Source: Escherichia coli
Lineage (GTDB): Bacteria; Pseudomonadota; Gammaproteobacteria; Enterobacterales; Enterobacteriaceae
Strand: one strand, 5' to 3'
DNA: 64,000 bases
Assembly: GCF_036507355.1 (NCBI RefSeq)
Contig: NZ_AP027877.1
Below, piece by piece: positions 62,201 through 64,000 of this stretch. Every line of letters begins with the position of its first letter. Position 1 is the stretch's first letter. Made by a program: the position numbers.

Positions 62201-64000
62201 GGTTAACCTTTGCAGTATCGCCGCCGAGGCGTTTAACCGCTTCGCGCATTGCAGCGAGATCAACAACGGCAGGTACGCCGGTAAAGTCCTGCATCAGCAC
62301 CCTTGCCGGGCGGTAGGCAATTTCACGGTCAGCATGGGCATTTTTCAGCCATCCCGCCAGCGCGTGGATATCCTCTTCGGTAACCGAGTTACCATCCTGC
62401 CAGCGCAGCAGGTTTTCGAGCAAAACTTTGAGTGACTTGGGTAGACGGGTGATATCGCCCAGTGATTTGGCAGCAAGCGGCAGGCTGTAGTAGTGGTAAG
62501 TTTTATCTTTGGCCTGCAACGTGTCCTTACTGGCTTCTCGTAGGGTTGACGACATAGCTCCTCCTTAATGACAGGGTTGCGAAGCCCTGATTCTCTTCAG
62601 GGTGAATATTAAAGATAACACAAACATCGCGTAACGATTTGATAACAACCCAAATTGATAAAAGAGGAGAAAGCTTGTGGCAAAGCAAATGAAAACCCCG
62701 CCGCAACGGGGTCAGGGATCAGTGAGTAATGATCCAGAGGAGTTCGGCCCAGAAGAGCATCGACAGAGAAAACGCGCCCATCCAGGACCAATATTTCATA
62801 TTTGTGTTGATCATAGGCTACACCCTTAACGGTTATTACTTTGTGTTGAGATAACTCAACCTGTTATTGCTGCGGTGTATTAAAAGCCCTGTAATTCATT
62901 AAAAATGGGTAATAAGAATGATGATAATTATTGTTTCGGCTGATCATCTTCAGCAAACAGTTCTATAAAGGCTTGCTGCTGCGATGTTAGTTGCCAGTCG
63001 TCTGGAATAACGACGGAACATTCCCGTTTCGTTTCTGGTTCATTGTCACTATCCTGGCATAATGGTGACGACTCCAGTTGCTCCTGACCAACCATAGTTA
63101 TCCCCACACTTTCCAAATCAGCAGTGCGACAACCACCCAGAAAAGTGCAGAACCAAGAAAAACCGCCAGCCAGGCTTTACGTTTTAATTCAGGATCGCGG
63201 CGGGGTTCCTGATTTCCAGAAGGCATTGCTAACCTCATATAATCGCCATCACTTATCAGCAAGACGTTGAACGATTGGTGTAATTAATCATACGATGAGA
63301 CAAATCCTAAAGAAACTTTAGTCAAAAATCCAGCGAATTTACGAATCGTCTCCAGTGAATAATTCAATCTGGTAATGACTCCAACTTATTGATAGTGTTT
63401 TATGTTCAGATAATGCCCGATGACTTTGTCATGCAGCTCCACCGATTTTGAGAACGACAGCGACTTCCGTCCCAGCCGTGCCAGGTGCTGCCTCAGATTC
63501 AGGTTATGCCGCTCAATTCGCTGCGTATATCGCTTGCTGATTACGTGCAGCTTTCCCTTCAGGCGGGATTCATACAGCGGCCAGCCATCCGTCATCCATA
63601 TCACCACGTCAAAGGGTGACAGCAGGCTCATAAGACGCCCCAGCGTCGCCATCGTGCGTTCACCGAATACGTGCGCAACAACCGTCTTCCGGAGCCTGTC
63701 ATACGCGTAAAACAGCCAGCGCTGGCGCGATTTAGCCCCGACATAGCCCCACTGTTCGTCCATTTCCGCGCAGACGATGACGTCACTGCCCGGCTGTATG
63801 CGCGAGGTTACCGACTGCGGCCTGAGTTTTTTAAGTGACGTAAAATCGTGTTGAGGCCAATGCCCATAATGCGGGCTGTTGCCCGGCATCCAACGCCATT
63901 CATGGCCATATCAATGATTTTCTGGTGCGTACCGGGTTGAGAAGCGGTGTAAGTGAACTGCAGTTGCCATGTTTTACGGCAGTGAGAGCAGAGATAGCGC

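Follow-up and report, generated by a model that had tools for sequence, protein, structure and literature searches.

The transposase of IS1, InsAB', is made by a -1 frameshift at an A6C run, acts on 23-bp terminal inverted repeats and duplicates 8-9 bp of the target. Where two copies of an insertion sequence lie in inverted orientation, recombination between them inverts the intervening DNA (Lee et al., 2016, PMC5009759), and an IS1-mediated inversion of 1.49 Mb is known from the long-term evolution experiment (Raeside et al., 2014, PMC4173774). Both local hopping and a preference for AT-rich targets have been reported for IS1 (PMC5009759).

Here, we consider an inverted pair of IS1 copies in a 64,000-nt stretch of an Escherichia coli chromosome (the window, by which we mean the whole of the DNA analysed), which is the reverse complement of about 1.33-1.39 Mb of the K-12 map. 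The IS1 of the window shares with IS1A of K-12 a length of 768 bp, the inverted repeats, the insA/insB' layout, the A6C run and a 9-bp target duplication, but its insertion sites are new. As in the long-term evolution experiment, identical inverted copies of IS1 are present on one chromosome, and the expected product of their recombination is an inversion with an IS at each end; in contrast to that case, the segment here is uninverted, measures 43.7 kb rather than up to 1.49 Mb, and lies within a single replichore arm. It seems most likely (with a probability of roughly 0.85) that the pair arose by two independent simple insertions of one IS1A-type element, in opposite orientations, around a segment that stayed uninverted. 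The first copy and the segment comprise the following (window coordinates, with strand where there is one).

18909-18917, no strand: left target-site duplication of copy 1, 9 bp, CGTTCAGTT
18918-19685, + strand: IS1 copy 1, complete, 768 bp, within ycjM
Ends of copy 1: terminal inverted repeats IRL GGTGATGCTGCCAACTTACTGAT and IRR GGTAATGACTCCAACTTATTGAT, 23 bp, imperfect, 18/23 positions matching
18973-19248, + strand: insA of copy 1, 91 aa, with Zn_ribbon_InsA and HTH_Tnp_IS1 domains (PF03811, PF12759)
19167-19670, + strand: insB' of copy 1, 167-aa ORF, DDE_Tnp_IS1 (PF03400), E = 2.3e-78
19224-19230, + strand: A6C frameshift site of copy 1, AAAAAAC, IS1 nt 307-313
19686-19694, no strand: right target-site duplication of copy 1, 9 bp, CGTTCAGTT, a direct and perfect repeat of the left one
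19686-63370, no strand: bracketed segment, 43,685 nt, defined from an ORF map set against the K-12 annotation and RefSeq names

The second copy, which runs off the end of the window, comprises the following.

63362-63370, no strand: predicted target-site copy for copy 2, ATTCAATCT, based on the 8-9-bp duplication made by IS1, one side being visible
63371-64000, - strand: IS1 copy 2, truncated by the window end, which leaves IS1 nt 768-139 visible and 138 nt outside
63371-63393, - strand: IRR of copy 2, GGTAATGACTCCAACTTATTGAT, identical in all 23 nt to that of copy 1, abutting the spacer on the ymiA side
63386-63889, - strand: insB' of copy 2, 167-aa ORF, DDE_Tnp_IS1 (PF03400), E = 2.3e-78
63808-64000, - strand: 3' part of insA of copy 2, assigned by identity to copy 1, its start lying past the window end
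63826-63832, - strand: A6C site of copy 2, AAAAAAC, IS1 nt 307-313, where a -1 frameshift would give the InsAB' transposase

A repeat search found one long repeat in the 64-kb window, the inverted pair 19056-19685 and 63371-64000 (630 nt, 100% complementary), with 43,685 nt between its arms; a perfect inverted repeat of 630 nt could not have originated by chance in 64 kb. The initial annotation had placed a second IS1 at 63371 on the opposite strand, running off the window, and the repeat search and the exact IRR at that position bear this out; the insB frames, said to be the same in both copies, are indeed identical 167-aa ORFs (19167-19670, + strand, and 63386-63889, - strand). Its naming of the element as IS1 is also sound, as Zn_ribbon_InsA, HTH_Tnp_IS1 and DDE_Tnp_IS1 domains are present and the sequence matches IS1A of K-12 at 765/768 positions.

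The repeat search and ORF map likewise agree with the earlier description of the bracketed DNA as some 43.7 kb from psp to ymiA, with an efflux block inside it. From the ycjM side, its genes are the 5' part of ycjM, pspEDCBA, pspF, puu, ymjA, sapABCDF, the RND efflux block, fabI and yciW, continuing with rnb, pdeR, yciT, osmB, yciH, pyrF, terA, lapBA, pgpB, ribA, acnA, ymiC, yciX and ymiA. The efflux block consists of five genes (39378-46969, - strand; products of 387, 457, 1035, 384 and 221 aa) between sapF and fabI, where K-12 has ycjD, and RefSeq annotation under the match includes a permease subunit of the RND type and a subunit for outer-membrane efflux. A 24.9-kb query holding this block was at least 80% covered in about 2,039 of 5,426 complete E. 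coli genomes, and the block is not associated with the IS1 copies.

Copy 1 has everything expected of a complete IS1: a length of about 768 bp, both inverted repeats, insA and insB', the A6C run, the Pfam domains and a target duplication. Compared with IS1A of K-12 MG1655 (19796-20563), it is the same at 765 of 768 bases, the three substitutions being A278 (which gives InsA V75I), G444 and G486. It cuts ycjM, the gene for glucosylglycerate phosphorylase, so that 461 native codons are followed by a stop, compared with 559 in the intact gene, and a C-terminal remnant is left at 18610-18873. Copy 1 inactivates ycjM. Neither the 461-aa nor the 470-aa form of the IS1-truncated YcjM had an exact match in a protein look-up.

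Other genes of the same operon also carry lesions. In ycjS (12799-13674, - strand), an in-frame deletion of 180 bp (60 codons) between two GAATGCCG repeats, with its junction near 13100-13117, leaves a product of 291 rather than 351 aa; this deletion is common to three close relatives of the strain (L026-L028) and is not found in O145:H28 or in four more distant relatives (L004-L007), and K-12 has the full-length gene. A 68-bp deletion in ycjT-ycjU (9947-12802, - strand; junction near 10549-10564) takes out the stop codon of ycjT together with the start of ycjU, giving a single 951-aa ORF that joins kojibiose phosphorylase to beta-phosphoglucomutase, with Glyco_hydro_65 and HAD domains. The exact 951-aa fusion is on record in only seven contigs, all of them with intact ycjM; L026-L028 have both deletions. 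In addition, ycjV, for an ABC transporter ATPase (8851-9933, - strand), is split in two (ORFs of 138 and 211 aa), as it is in L026. The split of ycjV, the interruption of ycjM by IS1 and the deletions in ycjS and ycjT-ycjU together suggest that, in this lineage, the ycj operon for sugar utilisation is in decay.

Copy 2 occupies the last 630 nt of the window, and a script comparison showed its reverse complement to be the same as nt 139-768 of copy 1. The A278/G444/G486 haplotype is common to both copies, the G278A change lying at 19195 in copy 1 and at 63861 in copy 2 and bringing about Val75Ile in the HTH domain of InsA. No exact match to the full 768 nt was found in the 5,426 complete E. coli genomes or among PLSDB plasmids, the best being 767/768, and copies differing only at nt 127, which falls outside the visible part of copy 2, are present in CP182387.1 and CDDKRJ010000005.1. 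We considered A278 as a private mark of two unique sister copies and rejected it, as other GenBank genomes match over nt 139-768. A look-up with the InsA V75I form also led to CP151548.1, in which an IS1 differing at 2 nt lies between cysB and ymiA at a site of the 63323-63330 type, with flanks 98.7% identical. IS1 copies that are 99.6% identical to those described here are labelled 'programmed frameshift' in RefSeq.

The original state of the copy-2 site can be seen in a close relative, L002 (GCA_047852605.1), which is 99.985% identical to the window over 49880-63370 (13.5 kb). The match breaks off at precisely the junction with IS1 (63370), and L002 continues uninterrupted into cysB and topA, its empty site reading ...AATAATTCAATCT immediately followed by TTTGACCTG.... 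As measured in L002, copy 2 lies about 130 nt 3' of the hairpin and T-tract of the cysB terminator and 132 nt 5' of the ymiA ATG, and separates cysB from ymiA-yciX. A promoter and terminator scan of the empty cysB-ymiA spacer found the cysB terminator only, with no sigma-70-like promoter in that spacer. The AT content at the two target regions is 60-67%, compared with 48% for the whole window, which is consistent with the known preference of IS1 (PMC5009759).

Both sites are empty in the nearest relatives. Three of these (L026-L028) are 99.97-100% identical over about 23 kb and have an intact ycjM of 559 aa with a single CGTTCAGTT; the more distant L004-L007 likewise have an empty copy-1 site and one CGTTCAGTT, making seven relatives in all. 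AcnA-based look-ups at two flank sizes returned only IS1-free relatives, those based on PuuE and YcjN led only to genomes at a greater distance, and none of the relatives found has both IS1 copies; GCA_905398585.1 and GCA_021425525.1 are also among the relatives of the strain. IS1 was at neither exact site in any of the 5,426 complete RefSeq E. coli genomes, and a scan of genome contigs with a 40-mer spanning a junction gave no exact match. In the complete-genome collection the best match to the unique DNA of the window is only 99.4-99.5% (O145:H28 and others), from which it follows that the strain's own lineage is absent from that collection. Given the empty sites in relatives that are 99.97-100% identical, sequence comparison points to both insertions being very recent and confined to this strain.

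The initial annotation took K-12 MG1655 to have no IS1 at these positions, correctly, since comparison with the K-12 annotation finds none in ycjM or between cysB and ymiA, and read this as a sign that the strain had experienced IS1 expansion. The recency of both insertions, with the sites empty in relatives, is in keeping with that proposal; the appeal to non-K-12 sites is not, as such sites are the norm. Of the 5,426 complete E. coli genomes, 4,970 have IS1; the median where there are any is 11 matching places, and the maximum at least 68. Two strain-specific insertions in 64 kb are more than expected if gains were few, although the window had been flagged for its two copies and IS1 is prone to hop locally (PMC5009759), and an expansion of IS1 in this strain is plausible but unproven.

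Other E. coli have acquired IS1 in the same neighbourhoods. It is found somewhere in the cysB-ymiA-ymiC stretch in 381 of 5,426 complete genomes, and the three of these that were examined have it elsewhere than copy 2, at the window equivalents of 63323-63330 and 62771-62779 and about 206 nt nearer cysB. The leader region of cysB-ymiA-yciX-ymiC (window 62771-63370; L001, L022, L023 and L032) is a recurrent target, with at least three other positions used, and every IS1 examined there has the orientation of copy 2. Strains B18271, WCHEC005237, CUVET18-789 and EC261 resemble the present case in having an IS1A-family element as a simple insertion in the same intergenic neighbourhood and orientation, with cysB beyond. 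They differ in the site of the element (closer to ymiA by 40 bp, closer to cysB by about 206 nt, or in the ymiC-yciX interval), in flanks that are 98.5-99.2% identical to those of the window, and in IS1 haplotypes 3-4 nt apart. The other positions, lineages and haplotypes indicate events independent of copy 2.

Around ycjM and ycjN, IS1 was found in 5 of the 5,426 genomes, and the two examined have it at other positions. A same-site hot spot in ycjM, suggested by two hits with the same query span (H31 and H35), was discounted, the IS1 actually being elsewhere in the ycjN/ycjM region. In the unrelated E. coli CP61_Sichuan and AZ 186 (L009 and L010), independent insertions affect ycjN and the 3' end of ycjM, one of them being a divergent IS1 (the whole query matching at 92%). 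It follows that IS1 has struck the ycjM-ycjN junction more than once, at different sites.

In the account that we favour, which draws on established IS1 biology, InsAB' would have mediated the simple insertion of one copy into ycjM and of the other into the AT-rich cysB-ymiA spacer. For copy 2 only one junction lies within the window, and this leaves some room for a different origin, namely that copy 2 marks one end of rearranged DNA (after recombination with a third IS1, in a larger inversion or deletion), or that the contig is falsely joined through a repeat, with DNA other than cysB beyond copy 2. IS1 copies are often substrates for recombination (PMC4173774), but the junction that can be seen falls exactly at an IS1 end, where a 99.985%-identical relative is uninterrupted, and in those examined of the 381 other genomes with IS1 in the cysB-ymiA-ymiC stretch the insertions are simple, with cysB on the far side. 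A false join is further opposed by the unique DNA that the assembly gives on both sides of copy 1, implying that 768-bp repeats were spanned. We therefore regard a rearranged or misjoined copy 2 as unlikely. If copy 2 is a simple insertion, position 64000 should be followed by the missing 138 nt of IS1, with ATCAGTAAGTTGGCAGCATCACC (reverse complement of GGTGATGCTGCCAACTTACTGAT) as the terminus, and after these by ATTCAATCT, TTTGACCTGAAATAG..., the cysB terminator and cysB.

The initial annotation also pointed out that the segment would be inverted by homologous recombination between the two inverted copies. Such behaviour of insertion sequences is textbook knowledge (PMC5009759; PMC4173774), and the pair has the properties of a substrate for RecA-dependent inversion, being an inverted repeat with 630 nt visible (768 expected) and 100% identity; here, the inversion is a potential only. 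After a RecA-dependent crossover, the 43.7 kb would lie inverted between two hybrid IS1 copies, with ycjN joined to the ymiA-acnA side and cysB to the side that has psp and the 5' part of ycjM. Such a change would escape short-read data. We found no signs of a past inversion in the form of swapped duplication halves or a reversed interior, the duplication at copy 1 being intact and direct, and the gene order ycjM-psp-puu-sap-...-acnA-ymiA is collinear with that of K-12, O145:H28 and the close relatives. From the direct duplication and contiguous ycjM at copy 1, the contiguity with ymiA at copy 2, and this collinearity, the sequence shows that the segment is in its ancestral, non-inverted orientation, and that no inversion event has taken place.

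Inside the segment lies a replication terminator.

56619-56641, + strand: terA, AACTAGTATGTTGTAACTAAAGT, matching the Ter core, with 22/23 bases the same as in K-12 terA

It is located between lapB and pyrF, as in K-12, and in the orientation found here we take it, from Tus-Ter polarity, to block forks heading to higher window coordinates (anticlockwise in K-12). Inversion of the segment would flip terA alone, and, if established Tus-Ter polarity applies, a clockwise fork would then be arrested by it. The fork trap of E. coli is highly conserved, and natural inversions flip terA and terC together, leaving the trap intact (Goodall et al., 2021, PMC8347550), although the flip of a single site, terC, has been found in some Shigella flexneri and Shigella boydii genomes (PMC8347550). 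Those Shigella genomes resemble the present case in that a lone innermost ter site is flipped by a local inversion, moving the fork-fusion zone, whereas the flip envisaged here is hypothetical and concerns terA. By analogy, the inverted isomer might be viable but is probably disfavoured.

A bolder proposal would be that the inverted pair acts as a reversible switch within the population, with terA alone flipped and the fork trap re-wired in a strain-specific manner. If this were so, terA, the innermost anticlockwise barrier, would become a barrier to clockwise forks, forks would have to fuse between terD and terA, leaving dif outside the trap, and both isomers should be detectable in long reads. 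We consider such a switch very improbable.

A one-step origin of the pair must also be weighed, in which copy 1 underwent intramolecular replicative transposition ('inversion-insertion') that generated copy 2 and inverted the segment at the same time. The identity of the copies over the visible 630 nt, their inverted arrangement, their separation by only 43.7 kb and the local hopping of IS1 (PMC5009759) would all suit this mechanism. It would, however, split the target duplication of the donor, whereas CGTTCAGTT is repeated directly and without mismatch beside copy 1, with unbroken ycjM sequence to its left and right; the DNA at the inner flank of copy 2 runs on into ymiA in the same way as in the relatives; and the gene order is collinear with K-12 and O145:H28. 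These features make a one-step origin extremely improbable. One might also suppose that a composite transposon of about 45 kb, flanked by IS1 in the manner of Tn1681 or Tn9, imported the RND efflux block, which is accessory and absent from K-12, but this idea has negligible credibility, because the rest of the segment is core chromosome syntenic with K-12, the best-matching complete genomes have the efflux block in this segment without the IS1 copies of the window, relatives whose interior DNA is identical have neither IS1 copy, and the target duplication belongs to copy 1 itself, with none flanking the unit as a whole.

Two independent simple insertions thus remain our preferred reading, and an inverted pair of this kind is ordinary, already-known biology. 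The finding documents two recent, strain-specific IS1 insertions, and has little importance beyond the annotation of the strain, except that the 43.7-kb segment can invert, of which assemblers and comparative analyses should be aware. The presence of terA within an invertible segment is the one mildly notable point of wider reach: an inverted isomer, if it existed, would be a natural single-ter flip of a conserved fork trap (PMC8347550).
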